Shown: positions 8,765 to 62,577 of the stretch, piece by piece
Numbering within the stretch: the stretch's first letter is position 1
Layout of the letters: each line of letters begins with the position of its first letter
DNA from: a virus
Taxonomy: Duplodnaviria > Heunggongvirae > Uroviricota > Caudoviricetes
Length of the DNA stretch: 64,000 nt
Direction: 5' to 3' (one strand)
Virus record (IMG/VR): IMGVR_UViG_3300033146_002139
Coordinates: 103,707-167,706 of that record
Program-made: the position numbers and the translations under genes
The notes under the pieces: model-generated
What the model saw: the letters and a program-made list of their open reading frames with translations, nothing else
What the model was told of the DNA's origin: nothing
Database searches by the model: none

Positions 8765-9262
8765 TTATTTCGTTAGAGTTGATAATAAAGAGGTGTGGCT
8801 ATCTTTTGAGTCAAGCAATACCCCCTTTAGATTCCTATACATCTTTCTCTCTTGGTCGTAGACCATAAATCTGTGAAGTAAGCTATGCTCTTCGTTTGTT
8901 AAGTGTATAATATCTTTAAAATGCTTATCATTGTAACTCCAATGATGCCTATGTTCTTTTTCTTTGGGCATTCTTTGTGATGCTATTTTGGCGTAGTATT
9001 TTTCAGGGTATTTTTCTTTGTGTCTTCTGATTGTTTCTGCTTTTTTTTCAGAGCTTGGTTTTTTGCATCCAAGTCTATGATATTTTTCACGACCTCTTTC
9101 TTTTTCTTTTTCGACCCAATCTGGGTTTGTTTCTCTCAACTTCTTTTCTCTTGCAGAAGTTCTTTTTCTAACACACTCTTTACAGGTTCTAGCCGTAGAA
9201 TAAAAATCTGTAATATTTTTTTCTGTGTTACACCCAGGGCAATTCTTTTTTAATTCACTCAT
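8765..9262 (-). CDS. hypothetical basic zinc-finger protein
   Basis: CPGCNTEKN...CKECVRKR at the N-terminus, Lys/Arg/Glu-rich middle, HRHHW...H C-terminal region. Confidence 0.5.
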   Translation of the reverse strand: MSELKKNCPGCNTEKNITDFYSTARTCKECVRKRTSAREKKLRETNPDWVEKEKERGREKYHRLGCKKPSSEKKAETIRRHKEKYPEKYYAKIASQRMPKEKEHRHHWSYNDKHFKDIIHLTNEEHSLLHRFMVYDQERKMYRNLKGVLLDSKDSHTSLLSTLTK

Positions 9263-9338
9263 TTAAGCTCCTTTTTTAAGTTACCTGCAATATAACACAG
9301 AAAGGTAGATATGTCAAGATAATTTTACCGTTCCTATA

Positions 9339-9767
9339 TTAAAATGGCAAATCATCTGACTCGTCTTGTTTCGTTGCAGGCGGAGTACTTGGTGCAGTTG
9401 CCTTTGAATCTCCATCTTGCTTAGGAGCTGACTTCTTATTTAGTGCCACAAGCTGATTGATATTGATATCTTTCTTTTCTTTTGGAGTTCCATCTTCTGC
9501 TGTCCACTTATTTGTCTTAATCTTTCCGACAACATATACAGAATCTCCTTTACCAAGATTTTGTCTGTCAATAAACTCAGCACTTTTACCCCATGCTATA
9601 ATATTATGCCATTCAACTTCGTCTTTGTAAGTCCCATCTTTTTGCTTGTACCCCTCACTTGTCGCAAGTGAAAACTTTACCATTGCCGTTCCATTTCCTA
9701 ATACTTTTGATTCTACATCACTTCCTATTCTTCCTAGAAGAGTTACTGCATTCACGCTGTTTGCCAT
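9339..9767 (-). CDS. ssb: single-stranded DNA-binding protein
   Basis: OB-fold signature VTLLGRIG..., WHNIIAWGKSAEF, and an acidic tail ending DESDDLPF. Confidence 0.85.
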   Translation of the reverse strand: MANSVNAVTLLGRIGSDVESKVLGNGTAMVKFSLATSEGYKQKDGTYKDEVEWHNIIAWGKSAEFIDRQNLGKGDSVYVVGKIKTNKWTAEDGTPKEKKDININQLVALNKKSAPKQDGDSKATAPSTPPATKQDESDDLPF

Positions 9768-10295: not shown

Positions 10296-11477
10296 TTAAA
10301 TCATTGAAATTTTAACCGGGTTAGCCACGAACCCTATATCGGATACAAAATTATCTCCGATTACTTTTCTTAAAATATTTGTTGCTCCGTTCCAGTCTGC
10401 ATTCACTAATTTATTGATACTTGACTGAAATAATCCTCGCTTAATTCTTTTACCTTTATACTTCTTGTGCTTACCTATCTTTTCAAGAGCTAAAGCATCA
10501 CATTTACTGGTATAGCTTTCTTCATTTCTTATCACTTTAATTCCAATTTCTTCTGATTTATACTCTAATTGCTGAATAAATCGCAAATAAGGGATGTTTA
10601 CAAAGTTTTGATTATTAACCTTACCAATGTTAGCATTTTGTTTCCAGCCTTGATTATAGCCAACTACAATATTTTTAATATCATTCTCCAAACAGTAGTT
10701 AATTATATATCTTGAGCTTTTATGCAGGTAATCATTAATCTTGTTGTTCCTTTTTAAAGTTAATCTGTTAATTCTATTAGATAATTGCTTATCGCCTACA
10801 AAACTCTGTAATTTAGCTTTCTTTTTATTGTAGTATTGATTTATGGATTTTAATGGTTTGCCATTACCAATTATAGGTTTTAAACCTGCATTGGTTGAAG
10901 TTGCAAATAAATTATTAACTCCTAAATCAAGACTGATGTATAAATCTTCGTTTAGATTTTCATAGGCTTTTACCTCCTTTTTGTAAACTATTTCAATAAT
11001 ATTATATCCAACTCTAGGAAGTATCCTAACTTGATTTACATTATTTACTTTAGTCTTTAATGGATTTATATTAGATTTTTTAGGAAACAATATAAATCCA
11101 TTTTTAAGTTTAACTTGCTGATTAGTAAAGATAATAATATTTTTACCGTTTTTATCTTTATACTTTGGTATTCTAGGTTTAGCTTTAAACTTCTTTGGAT
11201 TCTTAAAAAAAGCTTTTTCTGCTTTAATAAAAGACTTCCAGTTTTTAAATAAAACTTTAATTATTTGCTGAGATGTTTGAGCAAGTAAAGCTCTGTAATC
11301 GGACTGGTTCTCTTTAGCTAATTGAGTTGTTAAGGTATATTCTGACAATAAGTTACCATTACCTATAAACTCTTGACGAATTAAGTAATTACAGTAGTTG
11401 TATAAATTCTTGGATAAGAAATGTAAGCTATCCATATTTGAATTTTGTTTTACAATATGTCTCTCAACTCTTTGCAT
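10296..11477 (-). CDS. tnpB: TnpB-like protein (IS200/IS605 OrfB family), apparently lacking the RuvC-II Glu and the zinc finger
   Basis: N-terminal OrfB_IS605 region (QRVERHIV...LYNYCNYLIRQ), RuvC-I ISLDLGVNNLFAT and RuvC-III NADWNGATNIL are present. At the RuvC-II position it has NIVVGYNQGW where the paralogues have IIIETLDLK / LYFETLDIK / ISIEDLKIK. The C-terminus has a single Cys instead of CxxC..CxxC. Confidence 0.75.
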   Translation of the reverse strand: MQRVERHIVKQNSNMDSLHFLSKNLYNYCNYLIRQEFIGNGNLLSEYTLTTQLAKENQSDYRALLAQTSQQIIKVLFKNWKSFIKAEKAFFKNPKKFKAKPRIPKYKDKNGKNIIIFTNQQVKLKNGFILFPKKSNINPLKTKVNNVNQVRILPRVGYNIIEIVYKKEVKAYENLNEDLYISLDLGVNNLFATSTNAGLKPIIGNGKPLKSINQYYNKKKAKLQSFVGDKQLSNRINRLTLKRNNKINDYLHKSSRYIINYCLENDIKNIVVGYNQGWKQNANIGKVNNQNFVNIPYLRFIQQLEYKSEEIGIKVIRNEESYTSKCDALALEKIGKHKKYKGKRIKRGLFQSSINKLVNADWNGATNILRKVIGDNFVSDIGFVANPVKISMI

Positions 11478-20642: not shown

Positions 20643-20753
20643 AAATTTACATAAATATAAACTTTTGAGTTTTACTGCTTCATCGTACTCGATTTCAATA
20701 TGATTCTCTCTACTCTCGTTGATTTTAATACTCCGCAGTCGTTAATTTCCTTA

Positions 20754-21896
20754 TTAGCCTAAGGTATTATATTTTACACAATTCTTAATATTGATACTTG
20801 CATTCAAATCTCTGTCCATTGAAAAACCACATTTGCAATTATATGTTCTATCTGTGAGCTTTAAGTCTCTTTTTATACTTCCACATTTAGAACAAGTTTT
20901 ACTACTTGGAAACCATTTGTCTATTATTCTTAGCTCAATATTATATTTTTTGCATTGTTGAGTAAGAAACTCTCTAAAATAATAAAACATTTGGTCTTTA
21001 ATTGCTTTTGATAAATGCTTATTTTTCAACATACTTTTAATTTTCAAATCTTCAATACTAATAAATTTTGGGTTTAGACTAACCAGTGAATTTACTACAA
21101 ATCTTACACATTCGACTCTAATATTGCTTAAGCGATAATGTAATCTTTGAACTCTTAATTTGTTTTTATATATGTTTCTGCTAGACTCTCCTTTTGTCTT
21201 AGTTTTAAATTTACGACTTAATTGTCGCTGTGATTTTTTTAATTTCTTTTCTAATCTTTTTATTTTCTTAGTTTTGTTTATATTTTTAAAGAATTCACCC
21301 TCACTTGTAACCGCAAATTCTTTAATTCCTAAATCGATTCCGATAGCTTTAGTTTTCTTTTTTGGATTCATCTTTTTGGATTCTTCCTCAACTAAAACAC
21401 TTACAAAGTATCTATCAGCTATTCGAGATACAGTTCCGGACTTAACTTTAGAATTTAAGGGAATATATCCAAATTCTTTTAATCTTACAAATCCTAATGT
21501 GGGGATTTTAATTCTATGTCTTTCTAAAGTCCAATCATTTTTATTGTTCTTAGGTAGGTACATCTTGACTTTGCTATCTTTCTTTTTAAATCTTGGAAAT
21601 TTAGACTGTTTTTTAAAAAACTTCTTAAATGCCTTTTCTCCATTGAAAATAGACTGCTTTACAGATTTACTACTAACTTCTTTTATCCAGGAAAATTCCT
21701 TGTTAAATAATAGAAAATTATTATTAAGCCACTTGCTGAAGCTCATTGCAGATACAAATCTTTGTTCTTTTTCGTAAATCTCTTTATTGTATTTCAAGTA
21801 AAAATTATAAATAAATCTACAAGTCCCAAGAGTTTTATGCACTTTTTCTTTCTGCTTATCGTTTAGCTTTATTTCTATTTTATAGGATTTTAGCAT
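20754..21896 (-). CDS. tnpB: TnpB (OrfB, RuvC-like RNA-guided nuclease family)
   Basis: OrfB N-terminal domain, RuvC-I IGIDLGIKEFAVT, RuvC-II ISIEDLKIKSM, CSKCGS...CKCGF zinc finger, and RuvC-III DRDLNASINI. Confidence 0.8.
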   Translation of the reverse strand: MLKSYKIEIKLNDKQKEKVHKTLGTCRFIYNFYLKYNKEIYEKEQRFVSAMSFSKWLNNNFLLFNKEFSWIKEVSSKSVKQSIFNGEKAFKKFFKKQSKFPRFKKKDSKVKMYLPKNNKNDWTLERHRIKIPTLGFVRLKEFGYIPLNSKVKSGTVSRIADRYFVSVLVEEESKKMNPKKKTKAIGIDLGIKEFAVTSEGEFFKNINKTKKIKRLEKKLKKSQRQLSRKFKTKTKGESSRNIYKNKLRVQRLHYRLSNIRVECVRFVVNSLVSLNPKFISIEDLKIKSMLKNKHLSKAIKDQMFYYFREFLTQQCKKYNIELRIIDKWFPSSKTCSKCGSIKRDLKLTDRTYNCKCGFSMDRDLNASINIKNCVKYNTLG

Positions 21897-22307
21897 CTAA
21901 AACTCTTTTGAAATTAAGTCAAGACTTTTAGTAATTTTAAATGCTGTATTATTCTCTGCGTTTTCGGCTTTTACTTTATACTTTGAGATAAAAGCTCCTT
22001 TCTCTAGTATGCCTATTTTTAGATAACCATCTTTATATTCTCCAAAAGCAGTACAATTATCATCTCCTACATTGATACTAAAGCCTGAAAATGTAAAAAC
22101 ATCTTCAGAAATTCTTGTTACAAGGTTCTTGTGTAGCATTGCATAGCCATGTACTCCTCCCATGTAGTCAAAATACTGAGACTCTGAATAATATCTAGTA
22201 CCACCGTCTGTTATTTTGACTGGAATTAAAGAACGGTTTTTATGCCAAGTCCTTAAAGTCTTGGATGTGACACCTATTTTTTTTGCAAATTTACCTGATG
22301 AAAACAT
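21897..22307 (-). CDS. MerR-type HTH protein resembling the N-terminal DNA-binding domain of IS607 TnpA but without a serine-recombinase catalytic domain
   Basis: KFAKKIGVTSKTLRTWHKNRSLIPVKITDGGTRYY (MerR-like HTH). The rest (136 aa in total) has no S-recombinase motif. It abuts tnpB (stop to start 21897/21896). Confidence 0.5.
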   Translation of the reverse strand: MFSSGKFAKKIGVTSKTLRTWHKNRSLIPVKITDGGTRYYSESQYFDYMGGVHGYAMLHKNLVTRISEDVFTFSGFSINVGDDNCTAFGEYKDGYLKIGILEKGAFISKYKVKAENAENNTAFKITKSLDLISKEF

Positions 22308-43016: not shown

Positions 43017-43341
43017 CTCACTGTCTTTTAGTGAGACTAAAACTTGGGAGAGAATATTTATTCCTGATAATGAGTATTGGGAATTTGTAGGAAAGTGGAC
43101 ACAAATACTAACGGACATCTTAAGGATAAGCCCATTAAGCATAGCTCCTGAAGGGTGGCTAAAGCTTCAAGAAGAAAAATGGGACAATCTTTACAAGCCA
43201 AAAACAGAAGAAGAGATACAAGCATACAAAGACAGAATAAAAAACCTACCAGGCATTCAAAAGGAAGAAAAACAAAAAAAGAAAACAAAAAAGGAAATAG
43301 CAATGCTCGATGCAAATGCAACAGAGTTAAGCTTATTTTAA
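42997..43341 (+). CDS. hypothetical protein
   Basis: 114 aa with a Lys-rich tail. Confidence 0.45.
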   Translation: MAKRAYSSLSFSETKTWERIFIPDNEYWEFVGKWTQILTDILRISPLSIAPEGWLKLQEEKWDNLYKPKTEEEIQAYKDRIKNLPGIQKEEKQKKKTKKEIAMLDANATELSLF

Positions 43342-43351
43342 GGAGAAGAAA

Positions 43352-43927
43352 ATGATTAACAGAAAAAACACAAAAGTCGGAGATGTACTATCTGAAATAC
43401 AACATTATAGAGTTACTGATTTAACTAAAACAGAGATAGAAGTCGTAAACGAAAGAAATGAAAAATTTTGGATTGAAAACACTATAGCTGAAAACGGATG
43501 TAATTCTGCCACAGAATTTAACGAAGAAATAAAAGTAACTCGAACAGAGATAATAGATATTTTTTTAAAATCCTCAAGAATAGCCATGACTGTTGTTTTT
43601 AATAAACAAAAAAAAGAATCAGAGGCGAAAAAAGAGCTATATGCCTTATACGCCAAGGACAGTGGTAAAATCATATCTAAAGATGAATACAAAAAAAATG
43701 TAAACACAGTTATGAAAACTATTTTCAAAGGAGAAGAAAGGGTTATGACTGGGAGACATTACGGAAATTTAGACGAAAGAGGACGTATGTTTTTTATTGA
43801 TATGAAACAGCCAAACGAAACTGTTACGGCAAAAGACGGGACAGAATACGATAAAAGACAACGATTAGTAGACGGAAGGACTATAACATCTCTTATAGTT
43901 GATAATATCCGATACATAGTAAAGTAA
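43352..43927 (+). CDS. hypothetical protein
   Basis: 191 aa. Confidence 0.5.
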   Translation: MINRKNTKVGDVLSEIQHYRVTDLTKTEIEVVNERNEKFWIENTIAENGCNSATEFNEEIKVTRTEIIDIFLKSSRIAMTVVFNKQKKESEAKKELYALYAKDSGKIISKDEYKKNVNTVMKTIFKGEERVMTGRHYGNLDERGRMFFIDMKQPNETVTAKDGTEYDKRQRLVDGRTITSLIVDNIRYIVK

Positions 43928-43939
43928 AACGGAGAATAA

Positions 43940-44512
43940 ATGAATATATTTTTTACATCAGACCTACATCTTTTTCATAAAAAGATAATAGAATTTGAAA
44001 ATAGACCCTTTGCCTCTATAGAAGATATGACCGAAAAGTTAATCGAAAATTGGAATAAAGTAGTAAACAAGGGAGATGAGGTATTTATCTTAGGAGACTT
44101 TTCATTTGGAAAGCCAGAGGAAACTATGGATGCTTTAAAAAGGCTCAACGGTCAAAAATTTTTGGTTGAAGGAAATCACGATAGGGTAACGCCGGAGATT
44201 AAAAAACAGTTTGTATGGGTCAAGCCATATGTTAAAATCAAAAGAAAAAACAAAACTATGGTATTATGCCACTATCCAATACATGTATGGGAAAACCAAC
44301 ATTGGGGAACATTGCATTTTTATGGACATGTGCATAACGATAAAGCTAGAAAAACAATAAAGTGCGATATGGTTAATTCTTATAATGTTGGTGTAGATGT
44401 AAACAACTTTACTCCAGTGTTGATGGAAGATGCAATAATACTTGCTAGGCAAACAGAAAACAGAGTACAACCCTATATTATAAAGTCCTCAAGCAGTAGC
44501 AATAAATCGTAA
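43940..44512 (+). CDS. calcineurin-like metallophosphoesterase
   Basis: FFTSDLHLFH, ILGDFSF and VEGNHD (the MPP motifs D-x-H, GD, GNH[D/E]). Confidence 0.65.
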   Translation: MNIFFTSDLHLFHKKIIEFENRPFASIEDMTEKLIENWNKVVNKGDEVFILGDFSFGKPEETMDALKRLNGQKFLVEGNHDRVTPEIKKQFVWVKPYVKIKRKNKTMVLCHYPIHVWENQHWGTLHFYGHVHNDKARKTIKCDMVNSYNVGVDVNNFTPVLMEDAIILARQTENRVQPYIIKSSSSSNKS

Positions 44513-44723
44513 ATGATATATTTATTTACAGGGACTTTGAGACTAAGCTGGTTGTTAAGCGATTTACTGTTATCGTGAGTTTGCCCAGCTACCTATCTAC
44601 ATTAAACACCTACGGATTAGTCTAGTTCGTAGCAACTGTGAGGCAAGGAGAATGTTCGAATTGTCGTTAAGAGATGTAGCGTAGTTTGTCGAAGACAATT
44701 AAAACCTAATGGAGATGACTTAA
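44513..44723 (+). ncRNA. candidate IscB omega-RNA (structured 210-bp non-coding leader upstream of iscB)
   Basis: A non-coding interval, locally GC-enriched, with many short complementary segments (gggactttgagactaagctgg...cccagctacc, gcgtagtttgtcgaagacaatt), lying immediately 5' of iscB. Confidence 0.5.
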
Positions 44724-45923
44724 ATGTCAAAAATTTTTGTAACAGATAATAAAGACAAACCTTTGCTTCCAACAAGTGAAGCTAGAGCTAGATTGTTATT
44801 GAAAAATAATAAAGCTACTGTTGTGTCTATATTCCCTTTTACAATAAAACTTAAAAAAGAAATACTAAAACCAGCAGGAGAGTTTAAATGTGGAATAGAT
44901 GACGGAGCGAAATGGATAGGGATTGCAATTGCGAATAACAAAAAAGTTGTATTTGCAGGTAACATAAAACTGAGGCAAGATGTTAGCAGAAAAATACTTT
45001 CACGAAGTCAATATAGGCGAGCTAGGAGGACTAGAAATTTAAGACACCGTAAGGCTAGATTTTTAAACAGAGGCTCTAAAGGTTGGATTCCGCCAACAAT
45101 AAAACAAAAGAAAGATTCAGTTTTAAGAGTTATTGACTTTATGAAAAAACGATTAAACATAACCGAATGTGTTGTCGAACAGGGACAGTTCGATATTTCC
45201 TCGATGAGTGCAGGTTACAAGCTAACTGGGAAAGAATACCAATTAAGTCAATATAAAGGTAGTAACTTTAGAGAAAAAGTCCTTTGGAGAGATAAATTTG
45301 AATGTCAAAAATGCAAGTCAAAAGAGAGGCTTCAGGTACATCATATTACCTTCAAATCTAACGGTGGAACTAATATTGTTTCCAATGGAACAACTCTTTG
45401 TGAAAAGTGCCATAAATCCCTACACAATAAAGAGTGGGCATTAAAAAAGAAAGTAAAACACTTTAAATACCCAACTCATCTTCAGCAAGGAAAGAATTAT
45501 TTATTCTCTGAATTAAGTAAAAGGATTAGTAGTACAAGAATTTGTTTTGGCTGGATGACAAGTAAAAACAGAAAAGAATTGGGCTTAGAAAAAGACCATT
45601 ATTTGGACGCAAGTGCAATGATTAAAACAAACAAGTTCAATTGTACTCCTTATCAGATTAAGCCTAGAAGAAGCAAATTAAATATTAAAAGTGCAACTAA
45701 AAAATGTACAGAAAAAAACGGCTTTAGACATTTTGATATTGTTAAAAGCCATAATAGAAATCATGGAATTATTGTAGGCTCAATACGAAGCTTGAAGAAA
45801 TCGGCAATAACCTTAAGAACCTCTTTTGATGATAATTTCGCAGTAAGTTATAATAAAAGTAAAATACTAGAGCGACCTAAAGGTTTGATATTTATAAATC
45901 TACAGGTTATACAAAAACTATAA
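44724..45923 (+). CDS. iscB: IscB (OMEGA RuvC-HNH RNA-guided nuclease, Cas9-ancestor family)
   Basis: PLMP domain (NKDKPLLPTSEARARLL), RuvC-I CGIDDGAKWIGIAI, Arg-rich bridge helix RSQYRRARRTRNLRHRKARF, HNH CQKCKS...LQVHHITFKSNGGTNIVSNGTTLCEKCHKSLHN, RuvC-III KDHYLDA. Confidence 0.8.
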   Translation: MSKIFVTDNKDKPLLPTSEARARLLLKNNKATVVSIFPFTIKLKKEILKPAGEFKCGIDDGAKWIGIAIANNKKVVFAGNIKLRQDVSRKILSRSQYRRARRTRNLRHRKARFLNRGSKGWIPPTIKQKKDSVLRVIDFMKKRLNITECVVEQGQFDISSMSAGYKLTGKEYQLSQYKGSNFREKVLWRDKFECQKCKSKERLQVHHITFKSNGGTNIVSNGTTLCEKCHKSLHNKEWALKKKVKHFKYPTHLQQGKNYLFSELSKRISSTRICFGWMTSKNRKELGLEKDHYLDASAMIKTNKFNCTPYQIKPRRSKLNIKSATKKCTEKNGFRHFDIVKSHNRNHGIIVGSIRSLKKSAITLRTSFDDNFAVSYNKSKILERPKGLIFINLQVIQKL

Positions 45924-45936
45924 AGGAAGAGGAAGA

Positions 45937-46356
45937 ATGAGATTTACTAAAGAAAATATAATAGATTTAAAAGAGAGTGAGGTGTTTGTTTTTGGTGCGA
46001 ATGAAAAAGGTATTCATGGGGCTGGAGCTGCTAGATTAGCATTACAATGGGGTGCTGTTTATGGAGAAGGCTATGGAATGAAAGGAATGACATTTGCAAT
46101 TCCAACTAAAGATAAAAATATTCAAACACTACCATTGCCTGATATAAAAATATACATTGATGCTTTTATACTTTTCGCTGCAACTCGTCCAGAATATACA
46201 TTTTTAGTAACAAAAATTGGAACAGGACTAGCGGGTCTTTTCATTAAAGACATAGCTCCATTATTCAAAGATGCAACACTATACAACAACATAATCCTAC
46301 CTGAAGAATTTTGGGATATATTATCCGAACAAATGGAGACAACCGATGAAACTTAG
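45937..46356 (+). CDS. hypothetical protein, possible Rossmann-like nucleotide-processing (SLOG/LOG/macro-like) domain
   Basis: VFVFGANEKGIHGAGAARLALQWG glycine-rich motif; 139 aa. Confidence 0.5.
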   Translation: MRFTKENIIDLKESEVFVFGANEKGIHGAGAARLALQWGAVYGEGYGMKGMTFAIPTKDKNIQTLPLPDIKIYIDAFILFAATRPEYTFLVTKIGTGLAGLFIKDIAPLFKDATLYNNIILPEEFWDILSEQMETTDET

Positions 46357-46633
46357 CGTTAAAGACAAGTCAGCAATAGCATCTTTAATGATTGCTCAGA
46401 CAGGAATGGTAAATTTTATAGACATCATAGAAGAATCCGTTAAATTTAAAAATGATGATGGAACAAAAAATGCTTTTATAGAGTTTCTAAAACAAGGAGA
46501 CGAGCTATTAAAGAAAATGGACGAAGTCGGAGATAAGTTAATAGAAGGAATGTCGAATCCTGAAATCAAAAAAATAATCAATAAATCAGTTCAGTATATG
46601 AAATTATTGGACACGGAAAAAGGAAGAGAATAA
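46346..46633 (+). CDS. hypothetical protein
   Basis: 95 aa. Confidence 0.45.
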   Translation: MKLSVKDKSAIASLMIAQTGMVNFIDIIEESVKFKNDDGTKNAFIEFLKQGDELLKKMDEVGDKLIEGMSNPEIKKIINKSVQYMKLLDTEKGRE

Positions 46634-51185: not shown

Positions 51186-51314
51186 ATGAAACGAACTGAA
51201 ACAATAATAATTAGGTTAACAAAAGAAGAAAAAGCTAATATTGAAAGAAAAGCTAAAGAGCAAGGTTTGTCTTTATCGTCTTATTTAAGAAGTTTAGGGA
51301 TGAAAGATAAATAG
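51186..51314 (+). CDS. ribbon-helix-helix mini-protein coupled to tnpB (paralogue of the 49524 copy)
   Basis: MKRTETIIIRLTKEEKANIERKAKEQGLSLSSYLRSLGMKDK. A TTGACT promoter-like element lies at 51131. The stop TAG overlaps the GTG start of tnpB. Confidence 0.6.
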   Translation: MKRTETIIIRLTKEEKANIERKAKEQGLSLSSYLRSLGMKDK

Positions 51315-52432
51315 TGAAAACCTATAAATATAAAATATACAATAGTAAAAAGAATAAGAAATTATGCCAAAAGATTAATATTGCTGGTGTGGTTTTTAAT
51401 TATTGTATTGCTCTTCAAAGAGGTTATTATAGGTTTTATGGTAAACAATTAAATATTTATCAACTACAAAAACACTTAACTAAAAAGAAAAAATTAAATA
51501 AGTATTTCTTTTGGAAAGAACTAAGCTCTCAAACTATTCAAGATATAACCGAGCGAATAGATAAATCGTATAAACAGTTTTACCGTAATTTAAAAAAGGG
51601 AGTTAAAACAAGCCCTCCTAAATTCAAAAAAGTTAAGAAATACAAATCTATAACTTTCAAGAATACTGGATATAAATTCGATGGTAATAAAATTGCAATA
51701 CAAAAAGATTTATTTAAGTTTTCAAATAGTAGAAAGTTTCAGGGGAATATTAAACGAGTAATAGTAAAGCGAAACAATCTAGGAATGATGTTTTTATATG
51801 TAATAACAGATTTTGTCGATATTCGAGCAATCAAGTCAGTTAAAAGTGCTGGTTGCGATTTTGGATTAAAACAATTTTTGTCGTTTTCAGATAAAAGCAC
51901 GATTGATTCACCTTTATTTTTCAAAAAGAATTTAAAGAAAGTAAAAAGATTATCTAAAAAATTTTCCAAGAAAAAGAAAGGTAGTAACAACAGGAAACGA
52001 GCAAAATATAATCTTGGCAAGTTAAACTATAAAATAATGAATAAAAGAACAGATTTTCATTATAAACTAGCAAAAGATTTAGCGATAGACTATGGTATTT
52101 TATACTTTGAAACACTGGATATTAAATCAATGCAGAGACGATGGGGAAGGAAAATAAATGACTTAGGATTTTATAATTTTCTTCAAATACTAAAACAACA
52201 AGGATTAAAATACGGTTGCGAAGTAGTCCAAATTGATAAGTGGTTTCCAAGTAGTAAAACTTGCTCAGGTTGTGGTTATATAAAGAAAGACTTAACTCTA
52301 AAAGATAGAGCGTATAACTGTCCTGAATGTAAATTATCAATCGACCGAGATTTGAATGCATCAATAAATATAAAACGAGAAGGGGTATCTTCTCTTAAAA
52401 CCAAGACAGTAAAACTTTCGAGTATGTCTTAA
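51314..52432 (+). CDS. tnpB: TnpB (OrfB family), GTG start
   Basis: RuvC-I AGCDFGLKQFLSFS, RuvC-II ILYFETLDIKSM, zinc finger CSGCGY...CPECK, RuvC-III DRDLNASINI. Confidence 0.8.
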   Translation: MKTYKYKIYNSKKNKKLCQKINIAGVVFNYCIALQRGYYRFYGKQLNIYQLQKHLTKKKKLNKYFFWKELSSQTIQDITERIDKSYKQFYRNLKKGVKTSPPKFKKVKKYKSITFKNTGYKFDGNKIAIQKDLFKFSNSRKFQGNIKRVIVKRNNLGMMFLYVITDFVDIRAIKSVKSAGCDFGLKQFLSFSDKSTIDSPLFFKKNLKKVKRLSKKFSKKKKGSNNRKRAKYNLGKLNYKIMNKRTDFHYKLAKDLAIDYGILYFETLDIKSMQRRWGRKINDLGFYNFLQILKQQGLKYGCEVVQIDKWFPSSKTCSGCGYIKKDLTLKDRAYNCPECKLSIDRDLNASINIKREGVSSLKTKTVKLSSMS

Positions 52433-55781: not shown

Positions 55782-55860
55782 GGGGATGGATTGGTTTCGA
55801 TTGGATGTAAAGCTTACAAGAGCAAATCTCAAGACAGCGGTTCGAATCCGCTCATCTCCA
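55782..55860 (+). tRNA. 79-nt tRNA-like / tmRNA tRNA-like-domain-like element (perfect acceptor + T-arm, non-canonical D/anticodon region)
   Basis: GGGGATG...AGCGG-TTCGAAT-CCGCT-CATCTCC-A gives a 7-bp acceptor stem and a canonical T-arm. The 5' end GGGGAUGGAUUGGUUUCGAUUGG resembles the tmRNA 5' end GGGGCUGAUUCUGGAUUCGACGGG. I could not find a 5-7-5 anticodon arm. Confidence 0.4.
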
Positions 55861-56097
55861 TCAATAGAGGCGAGAATGAAAGAAAGTGTGTTAATTAAGA
55901 GCAAGCCAAATTACTATGCAATAGAATACAGGAAAGGGACGGTGCTTTTGCAAAGAAAAGTGGTCGAGTGCGGGACAGACCCTGCAATATCAACTGAAGA
56001 AGAGGTTATTTTATATTTATGTAAAAAAATCGAAGAGTTAGAATGTAAAACAGGAGACAAAAAGTGAAGAATATATTTTGTTCAAAAAAGGAAATGT

Positions 56098-61377: not shown

Positions 61378-62577
61378 TTATCCTTTTATAACCATTAATG
61401 GTGTTAGTTTATGCTCTATACTAACTAAGTCTTTTTGCTCTTCCATTACTATATCTATTGACTTGTAAGCTGAAGGAGCTTCGTCTAAATCATCTACAGT
61501 ATTTATAGAATGTATAATGCCTTGGGAATCAAGAATTTTTTTCTCGGAATCAATATCTAAATCTTCTTTAGCCTTGGTCCTGCTCATCTTTCTTCCAGCT
61601 CCATGACTTGCTGAGTTAAAAGAATCTTTATTTCCTAGACCCTTTACTATATAAGAAGACGTTCCCATTGACCCAGGAATTACACCGATTTCGCCTTTTC
61701 TTGCAGAGATAGCGCCTTTTCTATGCACCATAACATTTTTACCAAAGTGATTCTCAATTCTAGCATAGTTATGTTTTACGTCTATTAACCCAGAAAGGCT
61801 AAAATTGTATTTTTCGCTAAGGATGTTTTTAAAGCTTAGCATTATATTTTTCATCATTAGCAATCTATTTTCTCTTGCATATTCCACACAGTATTCCATT
61901 TCTCTTATATAGGACATTCCTACAGCAGAGTGTATAGGTAAAAATGCAAGGTCTAATTTTGGATTTACTACAGAATAATACTGTTCATTTACCTCTTTCG
62001 CCATTGCGTTGTAAGCCTTAGCAATTTGATAGCCTAAGTTTCGGCTTCCACTATGAATCATCACCCAAATAAAGTTATCTTTATCTTTTTGAATTTCGCA
62101 AAAATGATTCCCAGAGCCGAGGGTTCCTAGAGAATTTATTGCGTTATTATAGTGGTCTTCTAGTACGGGGCAATCTCCTTGAAGAGGAATTGATTCCATA
62201 ATATGTTTTCTTTCAGCATTTTCTAGTTGGTGCCTACTAAACCCTGTCGGTATTACTTTTTCTATCTCTGCCTTTATAAGTAAAAGTTTCTCCTTACTAA
62301 CTTCGTCGGTTTTCCATTTAGTCTTCAGTGCTGCGACTCCACACCCAATATCTACTCCGATTGCGTTTACAATTACTACATCTTCAGTAGCTAACACTCC
62401 TCCAATGGGCATCCCATATCCCTGGTGAACATCGGGCATTAATGCTATATGCTTGAAAGCAAAAGGTAAGTTTGCCAAATTAACTGCTTGGTCAATAGCT
62501 CCTTGTTCAGGATTGTCGCACCAAGACTTAATGTGCAGACGAATTGCATCTCCGCCAATATCATTTATATACAACAT
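61378..62577 (-). CDS. rtcB: RtcB-family RNA ligase (3'-phosphate/5'-OH RNA-splicing ligase)
   Basis: LMPDVHQGYGMPIGGV, GSGNHFCEIQ, HSGSRNLG, NYARIENHFG, PGSMGTSSYIV and SASHGAGRKMSR are all RtcB metal/GMP-site motifs. Confidence 0.8.
   Translation of the reverse strand: MLYINDIGGDAIRLHIKSWCDNPEQGAIDQAVNLANLPFAFKHIALMPDVHQGYGMPIGGVLATEDVVIVNAIGVDIGCGVAALKTKWKTDEVSKEKLLLIKAEIEKVIPTGFSRHQLENAERKHIMESIPLQGDCPVLEDHYNNAINSLGTLGSGNHFCEIQKDKDNFIWVMIHSGSRNLGYQIAKAYNAMAKEVNEQYYSVVNPKLDLAFLPIHSAVGMSYIREMEYCVEYARENRLLMMKNIMLSFKNILSEKYNFSLSGLIDVKHNYARIENHFGKNVMVHRKGAISARKGEIGVIPGSMGTSSYIVKGLGNKDSFNSASHGAGRKMSRTKAKEDLDIDSEKKILDSQGIIHSINTVDDLDEAPSAYKSIDIVMEEQKDLVSIEHKLTPLMVIKG

Follow-up and report, generated by a model that had tools for sequence, protein, structure and literature searches.

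Is an apparently intact IscB, an RNA-guided nuclease of the obligate mobile element-guided activity (OMEGA) type, on a phage genome the remnant of an insertion sequence (IS) or something that the phage uses, and what would it target? The question is raised by a 64,000-nt stretch of a Caudoviricetes virus (positions 103,707 to 167,706 of IMG/VR record IMGVR_UViG_3300033146_002139; hereafter the window), in which a first-pass annotation placed a complete iscB gene and, 5′ of it, a candidate omega-RNA. The locus is almost certainly an iscB gene with its omega-RNA. We also slightly favour a reading in which both form a 1,440-nt OMEGA cassette, situated between a phosphoesterase gene and a gene of family phrog_2072 and composed of a divergent HEARO-type omega-RNA followed by iscB, that lacks the transposase TnpA and is of homing type.

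The protein is an intact IscB

The ORF (open reading frame) proposed as iscB exists exactly as first annotated, with the following features.

44724–45923, plus strand: iscB, 399 aa, from the ORF list, Pfam, NCBIfam and alignment to solved IscBs
Domain order: PLMP-like N-terminus, RuvC-I (D59), Arg-rich bridge helix (98–113), RuvC-II (E152), HNH, RuvC-III (H292, D295), C-terminal region of interaction with the target-adjacent motif (TAM)
HNH domain: H206/H207, N221 and H230, with zinc-binding Cys 194, 197, 226 and 229
Motifs towards the N-terminus: PLLP (aa 13–16), GIDDG (aa 57–61), RRARRTRNLRHRKARF (aa 98–113), VVEQGQFD (aa 150–157)
Motifs of HNH and RuvC-III: VHHITF (aa 205–210), the HNH block up to H230, DHYLDA (aa 291–296)

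The protein scored 293.5 bits with NCBIfam NF040563 (guided_IscB, the 'RNA-guided endonuclease IscB' equivalog), whose cutoff is 175, over residues 4–297, and matched the Pfam families RRXRR (PF14239, 2.5e-51) and HNH (PF01844, 1.4e-9). Its nearest solved relatives are all IscBs (HfmIscB, 9k2z, 4.8e-48; TbaIscB; OgeuIscB, 7xht/7utn, 1.4e-27), their active-site motifs align with its own, and it possesses the split RuvC with an inserted HNH, the Arg-rich bridge helix and the catalytic residues of the family. All motifs quoted in the first-pass annotation occur in the order given there, although the one described as PLMP reads PLLP. In an alignment of 18 homologues, which takes in Staphylococcus phage proteins at 34 % identity, residues D59, E152, H206, H207, N221, H230, H292 and D295 are invariant, as are the zinc cysteines C194, C226 and C229; the loss of catalytic residues, named at the outset as grounds for abandoning this identification, was not observed.

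Around 450 homologues were found at E ≤ 1e-20, many of them 55–69 % identical and on long viral-looking contigs, and one, 53 % identical, in a cellular-looking context. Two close relatives, L047:4758–6179 and L193:2258–3679, are paralogous cassettes at different sites of one 114,682-bp phage contig. The dN/dS of this iscB pair is 0.12 at dS = 0.8, which shows purifying selection on the protein and, as far as close relatives can speak for it, on the window IscB. We regard the 399-aa ORF as a genuine, intact and apparently active IscB. A second ORF of 399 aa (61378..62577), considered as another IscB copy, encodes RtcB, and the window holds a single iscB.

A conserved RNA structure directly upstream of iscB

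The region 5′ of iscB was first described as a gene-free interval, enriched in GC and full of short complementary segments. The ORF-free interval is indeed present directly 5′ of the gene (44513–44723, 211 nt). Its GC content is higher than in the flanks (0.38 vs 0.29–0.36), but only slightly, and equally high values occur nearby. The single sequence holds no more structure than expected by chance, its minimum free energy (MFE) being no better than that of shuffled sequences (z = +0.52); the structure is nevertheless real, as judged by covariation among 20 sequences.

The non-coding DNA 5′ of iscB retains 72–80 % nucleotide identity among relatives whose proteins are only about 66 % identical. 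RNAalifold with 13 sequences gave 18 pairs, nine of them with compensatory changes. In a hand-curated structure for 20 distinct members of the family, 83.5 % of cells are paired (33–44 % with slid partners), 111 cells show double-sided compensation (39 ± 5 in shuffles; 0/500) and the covariation score is 0.41 against 0.18; helices Ha, Hb, Hd, He and Hc are paired in 94 %, 97 %, 97–98 %, 81 % and 76 %, respectively. A leave-one-out profile, from which the window sequence was excluded, gave a single match in the 64 kb, at 44533–44726 (E = 5.5e-32), directly 5′ of iscB and on the same strand. The MFE of the RNA as delimited below, with its candidate guide (44465–44726), is also near chance (z = −0.72). 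The structure is thus invisible to single-sequence statistics and only comparison among relatives reveals the RNA, and the centroid fold of 44465–44726 recovers helices Hb, Hc, Hd and He, the long helix, the closing stem P1 and the 5′ hairpin. The scaffold core consists of the following parts.

44531–44723, plus strand: omega-RNA scaffold core, from covariation, RNAalifold and the leave-one-out profile
44535–44543 with 44688–44695: helix Ha
44546–44551 with 44585–44590: helix Hb
44559–44563 with 44572–44576: helix Hc
44564–44571, plus strand: loop of Hc, UUACUGUU, pseudoknot partner of the leader at 44492–44499
44589–44592 and 44597–44601 with 44675–44679 and 44681–44684: long helix, from alignment to the HEARO consensus and the centroid fold
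44610–44617 with 44625–44632: helix Hd
44642–44646 with 44661–44665: helix He
44711–44714: Shine-Dalgarno (SD) sequence GGAG

These comparisons show the upstream RNA to be a conserved, covarying and HEARO-like structure. The core of the first-pass reading, that a phage carries an intact IscB preceded by an omega-RNA, is supported by protein profiles, RNA conservation and covariation. Two candidates were discarded: the minus strand of 44513–44723 folds worse than shuffles, and a helix Hf, as first drawn, was paired in only 45 % and gave way to the HEARO-type long helix.

The sequence CUUAAAUG at 44720–44726 is nearly invariant in the window and all 20 aligned relatives (alignment A3), and a TAA stop stands directly 5′ of the iscB ATG in every aligned member. 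CUUAA is complementary to an invariant UUAAG at 44556–44560; this pairing, invariant and without covariation, could reflect a 3′ pseudoknot or translational control.

The RNA starts inside the upstream gene, next to a candidate guide

The 5′ part of the RNA extends into the phosphoesterase gene, with the features listed here.

43940–44512, plus strand: calcineurin-like phosphoesterase gene (PHROG phrog_547, 1.3e-55, aa 1–179 of 190; Pfam Metallophos_2)
44465–44481 (approximately), plus strand: candidate guide GTACAACCCTATATTAT, about 16–17 nt, with an edge uncertain by 1–3 nt, inside the phosphoesterase coding sequence (CDS)
44482–44538, plus strand: 5′ domain of the omega-RNA, with P1, leader strand and hairpin
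44482–44489 (AAAGUCCU) with 44531–44538 (GGGACUUU): P1 closing stem, 8 bp
44492–44499: pseudoknot strand AGCAGUAG, inside P1
44509–44516 with 44522–44529: 5′ hairpin, inside P1, holding the phosphoesterase stop codon

Cognate P1 strands from 21 members pair at −7.45 kcal/mol, against −5.63 for non-cognate strands (permutation p 5e-5). The leader and the Hc loop also form a covarying duplex (cognate −7.09 vs non-cognate −5.21 kcal/mol, permutation p 5e-5, 17 members), which is made of different sequences in different members and amounts to an 8-bp pseudoknot in the window. The HEARO consensus opens with the same closing stem, its RNA 5′ end pairing with bases just before GAG. The paralogous copies L047 and L193 share identity from about 40 nt 5′ of the GGCUUUGAG motif as far as the stop of iscB, and show no relationship beyond these limits. 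The P1 covariation, the leader-loop pseudoknot and the limits of paralog identity place the start of the scaffold near 44482, and not at 44513 as the first-pass annotation, which equated the scaffold with the intergenic interval, would have it. Comparison shows that the predicted RNA begins with the P1 closing stem inside the upstream ORF; the scaffold would span about 44482–44723, some 242 nt rather than 210, and overlap the last 31 nt of the phosphoesterase ORF. The phosphoesterase stop lies +28 nt from the P1 start; it and the last ~10 codons before it (..KSSSSSNKS*) belong to the 5′ part of the element, and the conserved phosphoesterase domain ends at about aa 179. The 5′ hairpin is present in nearly all members with unrelated stem sequences. 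An alternative pairing of the leader GGAGC with GCUCU farther 3′ lacks covariation, and P1 was preferred.

The guide had been expected at the 5′ end of the intergenic interval; its position instead falls in the phosphoesterase CDS, immediately 5′ of the covarying P1. Homology between paralogous and related elements breaks at this position, and position 1 of the Rfam HEARO model coincides with the P1 start in relatives. We consider it quite probable that 44465–44481, within the edge uncertainty given above, are the guide coordinates. The guide would be derived from the flank, a property that for the window we infer from homology to relatives. No second protospacer for the guide 16-mer was found in the window. 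The hairpin adjoining the scaffold was considered as a guide or terminator and discarded: it lacks a T-run and belongs both to the element and to the 5′ domain of HEARO.

Insertion junctions and element ends

Short direct repeats and the downstream gene mark the limits of the putative insert.

44479–44485, plus strand: left junction repeat TATAAAG, 7 nt
45919–45925, plus strand: right junction repeat TATAAAG, holding the iscB stop TAA (45921–45923) and followed by AGGAAGAGGAAGA-ATG of the next gene
45937–46356, plus strand: phrog_2072 gene, of unknown function, co-oriented and starting 13 nt after the iscB stop
Reconstructed insert-free allele: ...CCCTATATTATAAAGGAAGAGGAAGAATGA..., with the candidate target form GTACAACCCTATATTAT-NNNNNNNN

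The insert between the TATAAAG repeats measures 1,440 nt, and its right end would lie at the iscB stop codon, where homology between the paralogous elements L047 and L193 also stops. Removal of the insert and one repeat leaves a phosphoesterase ORF that ends ...CCC TAT ATT ATA AAG GAA GAG GAA GAA TGA, with this TGA overlapping the start codon ATG of the following gene as is typical where genes are coupled. In the reconstructed allele ...TATATTATAA is followed by AGGAAG, and in the resident one by AGTCCT. Among 16 members the junction repeats average 6.0 nt (5.35 in the background, p 0.02), and 6/16 reach at least 7 nt against 14 % of the background. Every member follows a co-oriented gene whose stop lies −25 to +40 nt from the P1 start, and the element ends 0–45 nt before the next gene.

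The Y1 transposase characteristic of autonomous IS200/IS605 elements was not found: there is no Y1_Tnp (PF01797) in 20 window ORFs, including all those within 2 kb, and no Y1 TnpA is listed within 5 kb in L047, L048, L049–52, L192 and L193. The RNA-side end of the element has a hairpin, and no conserved hairpin was seen at the other end, the stop codon. By eye, the hairpin region seemed to share a gapped repeat with the 3′ end of the CDS, which was not supported.

Filled and empty alleles in Staphylococcus phages

The window phage has no close DNA relative among 50,697 GenBank phages, and filled and empty alleles were compared in Staphylococcus phages. A tblastn search found IscB-like ORFs in 35 GenBank phage records. 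In Silviavirus, a 1,546-nt insert is present in seven phages and missing from some 49 relatives whose flanks are about 94 % identical; 'HEARO' RNA is already annotated in several of these records (a misc_RNA in GenBank PV295866.1), and the first base of the insert aligns with position 1 of the HEARO model. In VL10 (L205), the 16 nt that precede HEARO, CAAATAGTAAAAAAAA, equal the empty allele of Romulus, where they are followed by AGGTGATG. At the right junction of VL10 there is a second copy of the target, in which a Ser codon has changed from AGT to TCG, giving three mismatches to the guide; in the frame of the resolvase downstream the change is synonymous, and the resolvase acquires a new start codon (MLNL-). 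The insert is thereby flanked by a 19-nt imperfect target duplication (L207:1088–1106 and 2634–2652 in CIFT_MFB_MRSA13; empty allele at L206:1088–1106 in Romulus), and the IscB C-terminus reads through the right copy.

An element 81 % identical to this one occupies another site in Baoshanvirus JDF86, with one filled genome and seven empty ones. The empty allele of phiSA_BS1 reads ...CCTATAAAGGA directly followed by GAAAAGACTATTATG; the JDF86 insertion, inside this stop/SD junction, is clean save for a 4-nt overlap, and a new SD sequence is supplied by the element at its 3′ end. The Golestan101-M element, 92 % identical to that of JDF86, occupies a third site, and its two ends are sharp limits of the identity. 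The sequence after the guide position is AGGTGA or AGGAGA in empty sites, and AGTCTT or AGGACT in filled ones, which leads us to hypothesize an AGG-containing TAM. These comparisons show that phage IscB cassettes are discrete and mobile units, and that the sequence at the predicted guide position is derived from the flank and equals the insert-free allele.

Paralogous, decayed and missed copies

The RNA regions of L047 and L193 (about 245 nt) are 100 % identical save for a 4-nt hairpin loop (AAAC vs ATTT), whereas their CDS are only about 85 % identical and diverge most at the 3′ end. This suggests either very strong constraint on the RNA or gene conversion limited to it. Decayed cassettes, in which a fragment of the omega-RNA scaffold is fused to a C-terminal fragment of IscB, occur at L041:2367–2500 (and also in L040) and at L101:2647–2813 on the minus strand; the remnants comprise aa 295–391 in L040/L041 and aa 348–394 in L101, so that internal deletions have kept both element ends, as expected for elements that turn over. 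A pattern scan with scaffold motifs gave chance-level results in a genome collection, with all 89 of 89 matches devoid of IscB. In viral sequences, 4/22 matches had an intact IscB and a fifth (L101) was the decayed copy.

Immediately 5′ of the L047 element, the 15-nt sequence AGGGAGACCTTATTT occurs twice in tandem (L047:4728–4759), a putative guide/target doubled in the flank, and a sub-threshold match to YrlA (Y RNA-like) lies at L047:4327–4483. Other selfish nucleases neighbour the cassettes: a ribonucleotide reductase with a LAGLIDADG (intein-type) domain at L193:1–1849, TnpB and an HNH_3 gene at L049:2461–3624 and 8786–9625, and an annotated transposase in Golestan101-M (L210:4143–4188).

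Relation to HEARO RNAs and to known mobile nucleases

A covariance-model search for HEARO, as the first-pass annotation had proposed, left the window RNA below any Rfam reporting level; the gathering threshold of the model is 83 bits. Relatives gave full-length matches under that threshold (L001 44.4 bits, with E 5e-8 in a narrow search; L019 36.7; L047 30; L018 28.2), which places the family as a divergent IscB omega-RNA. About 35 % of IscB 5′ untranslated regions have no RF02033 match (PMC9755519). The window locus resembles OgeuIscB (PDB 7utn/7xht) and HfmIscB (PDB 9k2z) in domain order and catalytic residues, and IscB/HEARO systems generally in having the RNA directly 5′ of the gene on the same strand. 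Its RNA has the P1 of the HEARO architecture, a 5′ GAGNCUAAG in long-range pairing with 3′ UUGYC, a central CACC..GAUG..CAGU hairpin and a long multibranch helix. It differs in the smaller protein (399 aa vs 496 in OgeuIscB and 540 in HfmIscB), in the low scores of its relatives (28–44 bits), in an RNA that overlaps the 3′ end of a host gene, and in the interior of P1, where the HEARO consensus has a first hairpin and the window a single-stranded leader that forms the covarying pseudoknot with the Hc loop.

IscB elements of the ISGst5 type, from Geobacillus stearothermophilus (Meers et al., PMC10055086), similarly have no tnpA of their own and, as predicted for the window cassette, an omega-RNA bounded by the element end, a guide taken from the adjacent flank, the insert-free joint as target and a motif at the scaffold start that is like the TAM without being identical to it. 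Unlike the window cassette, they are chromosomal and multicopy, have hairpin-bearing left and right ends, are demonstrably mobilized by TnpA and make no duplications; the window cassette is carried by a phage, has no TnpA that we could find, ends on the right at a stop codon and is flanked by short junction repeats.

The free-standing homing endonuclease genes of T4, Seg and Mob, which spread by 'intronless homing' (reviewed in PMC13565253), are comparable in that a nuclease gene is wedged between conserved, co-oriented phage genes, in the presence/absence polymorphism among close relatives (seen in the Staphylococcus phage cassettes) and in a donor allele protected by target differences, for which Silviavirus offers the synonymously recoded target copy. 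Their recognition depends on protein-DNA contacts, whereas an OMEGA cassette would use a flank-derived RNA guide and a TAM, and insertion itself would part the guide match from the TAM, building in self/non-self discrimination. The cassettes of Staphylococcus Twortvirinae (VL10, CIFT_MFB_MRSA13, JDF86 and Golestan101-M) share with the window element a phage carrier, the absence of TnpA, a size of about 1.5 kb, co-orientation, an RNA leader (270 nt) with a sub-threshold HEARO match in the group, and a position at stop-codon/SD junctions where the 3′ end of the element restores the expression signals of the downstream gene. They differ in protein sequence, in belonging to another RNA subfamily and in having known empty alleles.

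A proposed homing cassette and its alternatives

In the reading that we favour, the omega-RNA would be made by read-through from the upstream operon, because all contexts are co-oriented and no promoter is predicted: no sigma-70-like promoter or terminator was predicted near the RNA (43300–46500), a result that is consistent with read-through and proves nothing. The ~16 nt 5′ of P1 would act as guide, and the IscB-omegaRNA complex would cut a matching sequence where the TAM follows in place of the scaffold, in practice the allele without insert in a related phage that infects the same cell. Repair by recombination with the insert-bearing genome would then copy the cassette, a form of RNA-guided 'intronless' homing. 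As there is no transposase gene close by, this is probably the main route by which the cassette persists and spreads; to reach a site for the first time it would require illegitimate recombination or a transposase acting in trans. As to the homing lifestyle itself, we judge the chances to be even.

Several results weigh against this reading. Searches for an empty allele of the window phage, by near-DNA comparison, with both flanking genes in IMG/VR and with the reconstructed junction 20-mer, found none, so that for the window the target, TAM and precise ends are all reconstructions; for the well-sampled P0055 element, too, only the same contig was returned. The guide-match search foreseen in the first-pass annotation gave only chance matches of the 16-mer among 2.9 million viral contigs, and the window RNA had no match to Rfam HEARO RF02033 even at E ≤ 10 in a 381-nt search. 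The enrichment of junction repeats is weak (p 0.02–0.06). The Staphylococcus IscBs, which provide the empty alleles, are only 33–34 % identical to the window IscB, the candidate TAMs at different sites share only AGG, and the 5′ domain of the JDF86 element is atypical, lacking the consensus P1. The guide, transcription, processing and cleavage are predictions from sequence, and a host-encoded TnpA acting in trans is possible.

This last point is central to the main rival, which we regard as unlikely though not negligible: a conventional, non-autonomous IS200/IS605 (ISC-type) element, excised and inserted as single-stranded DNA by a Y1 TnpA that the host or some other element provides in trans, with IscB only restoring the element at its donor site after excision (peel-and-paste, then cut-and-copy). 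Mobilization by TnpA is established biology for IscB elements (Meers et al., PMC10055086), and the sharp ends, the many different sites and the two copies in one phage would all follow from it. AGTCCT, with which the scaffold begins, resembles AGGAAG, the reconstructed TAM, much as the two motifs of a TEM/TAM pair (transposon-encoded and target-adjacent motif) resemble each other in that study (PMC10055086), and the four TnpB elements of the window, one with a RAGATH-18 RNA, indicate that IS-type elements do enter this genome. The model fits less well, however, because of the missing transposase, the right end at a stop codon and the junction duplications: Y1_Tnp was found neither in 20 window ORFs nor within 5 kb of the cassette in six annotated relatives; past the stop codon a left-end hairpin would have neither room nor conserved sequence, and paralogs are least conserved at the 3′ end of the CDS; and junction repeats of 4–8 nt, together with the 19-nt recoded target duplication, are unexpected from TnpA, which makes no duplications. 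Carriers of the cassettes moreover include strictly virulent Herelleviridae.

A domesticated weapon, directed at competing phages, the host chromosome or a host defence locus by a guide that is fixed and selected instead of arising as a by-product of insertion, is improbable. Purifying selection on the protein and maintenance of the RNA would suit it, as would the identity of the RNA scaffolds of paralogs in one phage whose CDS differ by 15 %, which suggests selection on function, and homing endonucleases are known to give their carriers a competitive advantage (review PMC13565253). What occupies the guide position, however, is part of the upstream gene of the phage itself and is different at each site of insertion, which marks a guide as derived from the flank; neither the window nor the viral contigs offered a protospacer beyond chance; and decayed copies in related phages (L040/L041, L101) are expected of a selfish element. 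We give very little credence to an inactive relic, the iscB gene and leader of an old insertion no longer guided or mobile, for although the single copy in the window, the lack of close relatives of the window phage to show recent movement, the RNA below every Rfam threshold and the shortened derivatives in other phages would agree with it, the ORF is full-length with intact and invariant catalytic and zinc-binding residues, all covarying helices can form in the window, including the 8-bp P1 and the 8-bp pseudoknot, and the dN/dS of relatives is 0.12. To the question posed by the first-pass annotation, an IS remnant or a tool of the phage, our answer is that the locus does not look like a remnant, and that a selfish homing cassette is favoured over a weapon with an external target.

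Other elements in the window

The remaining gene content bears out the phage context first proposed: besides the phosphoesterase and the phrog_2072 gene, the window encodes an ATP-dependent ligase, primase, polymerase, DNA methyltransferase, single-stranded DNA-binding protein, amidase and RtcB. It also contains four tnpB genes, identified by Pfam OrfB_IS605, a Cas12f1-like TNB domain and PHROG phrog_506, which together with iscB make five OMEGA-type nuclease genes in 64 kb.

10296–11477, minus strand: tnpB
20672–20739, minus strand: RAGATH-18 RNA (57.4 bits, above gathering), directly downstream of the next tnpB
20754–21896, minus strand: tnpB
21897–22307, minus strand: ORF of 136 aa just upstream of that tnpB, with only a MerR-type helix-turn-helix
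49652–50746, plus strand: tnpB
51314–52432, plus strand: tnpB
55782–55863, plus strand: match of 82 nt to the Rfam tmRNA model (54.2 bits, above gathering)

RAGATH-18 is the guide RNA type of IS607-family TnpB, and the 136-aa ORF may be a truncated IS607 serine-recombinase TnpA. ARAGORN detected no tRNA or tmRNA in the window; the tmRNA match may represent a tRNA-like fragment or a phage tmRNA-like element.

Implications

Viral IscB is already documented, in that over 16 % of HEARO-encoding fragments were assigned to viruses or prophages (PMC9755519), and the concept of homing into co-infecting phages has been put forward (PMC13565253); our literature search found no paper describing such homing for a phage IscB. 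The window locus is a new, divergent member of this group, and a homing lifestyle, if tested, would be its new part. It provides a compact (399 aa), apparently active IscB with an omega-RNA of about 242 nt and a candidate guide of 16–17 nt, from an RNA subfamily missed by curated RNA models, which makes it useful for annotation and a candidate compact editor. The wider comparison supplies natural, sequence-level evidence on OMEGA nucleases in phages in the form of filled and empty alleles, the match at the guide position and the recoded target.

We tentatively suggest, with less than even confidence, that phage-borne IscB-omegaRNA units have a lifestyle distinct from that of a stranded IS, as TnpA-independent, RNA-guided homing cassettes of virulent and large phages. 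Such units would insert precisely at stop-codon/SD junctions of co-oriented genes, with the AGG-containing half of the SD sequence as TAM, obtain their guide from the 3′ end of the upstream gene by read-through, rebuild the expression signals of the downstream gene and, where genes overlap, carry a synonymously recoded target copy for self-immunity; the window element would be one of them, and phage co-infection the arena in which they are maintained. If true, the 'RNA-guided homing' model would apply not only to chromosomal IS but also to an inter-phage gene drive, and this would help to explain the build-up of nucleases in phage genomes such as that of the window, with its one IscB and four TnpB.

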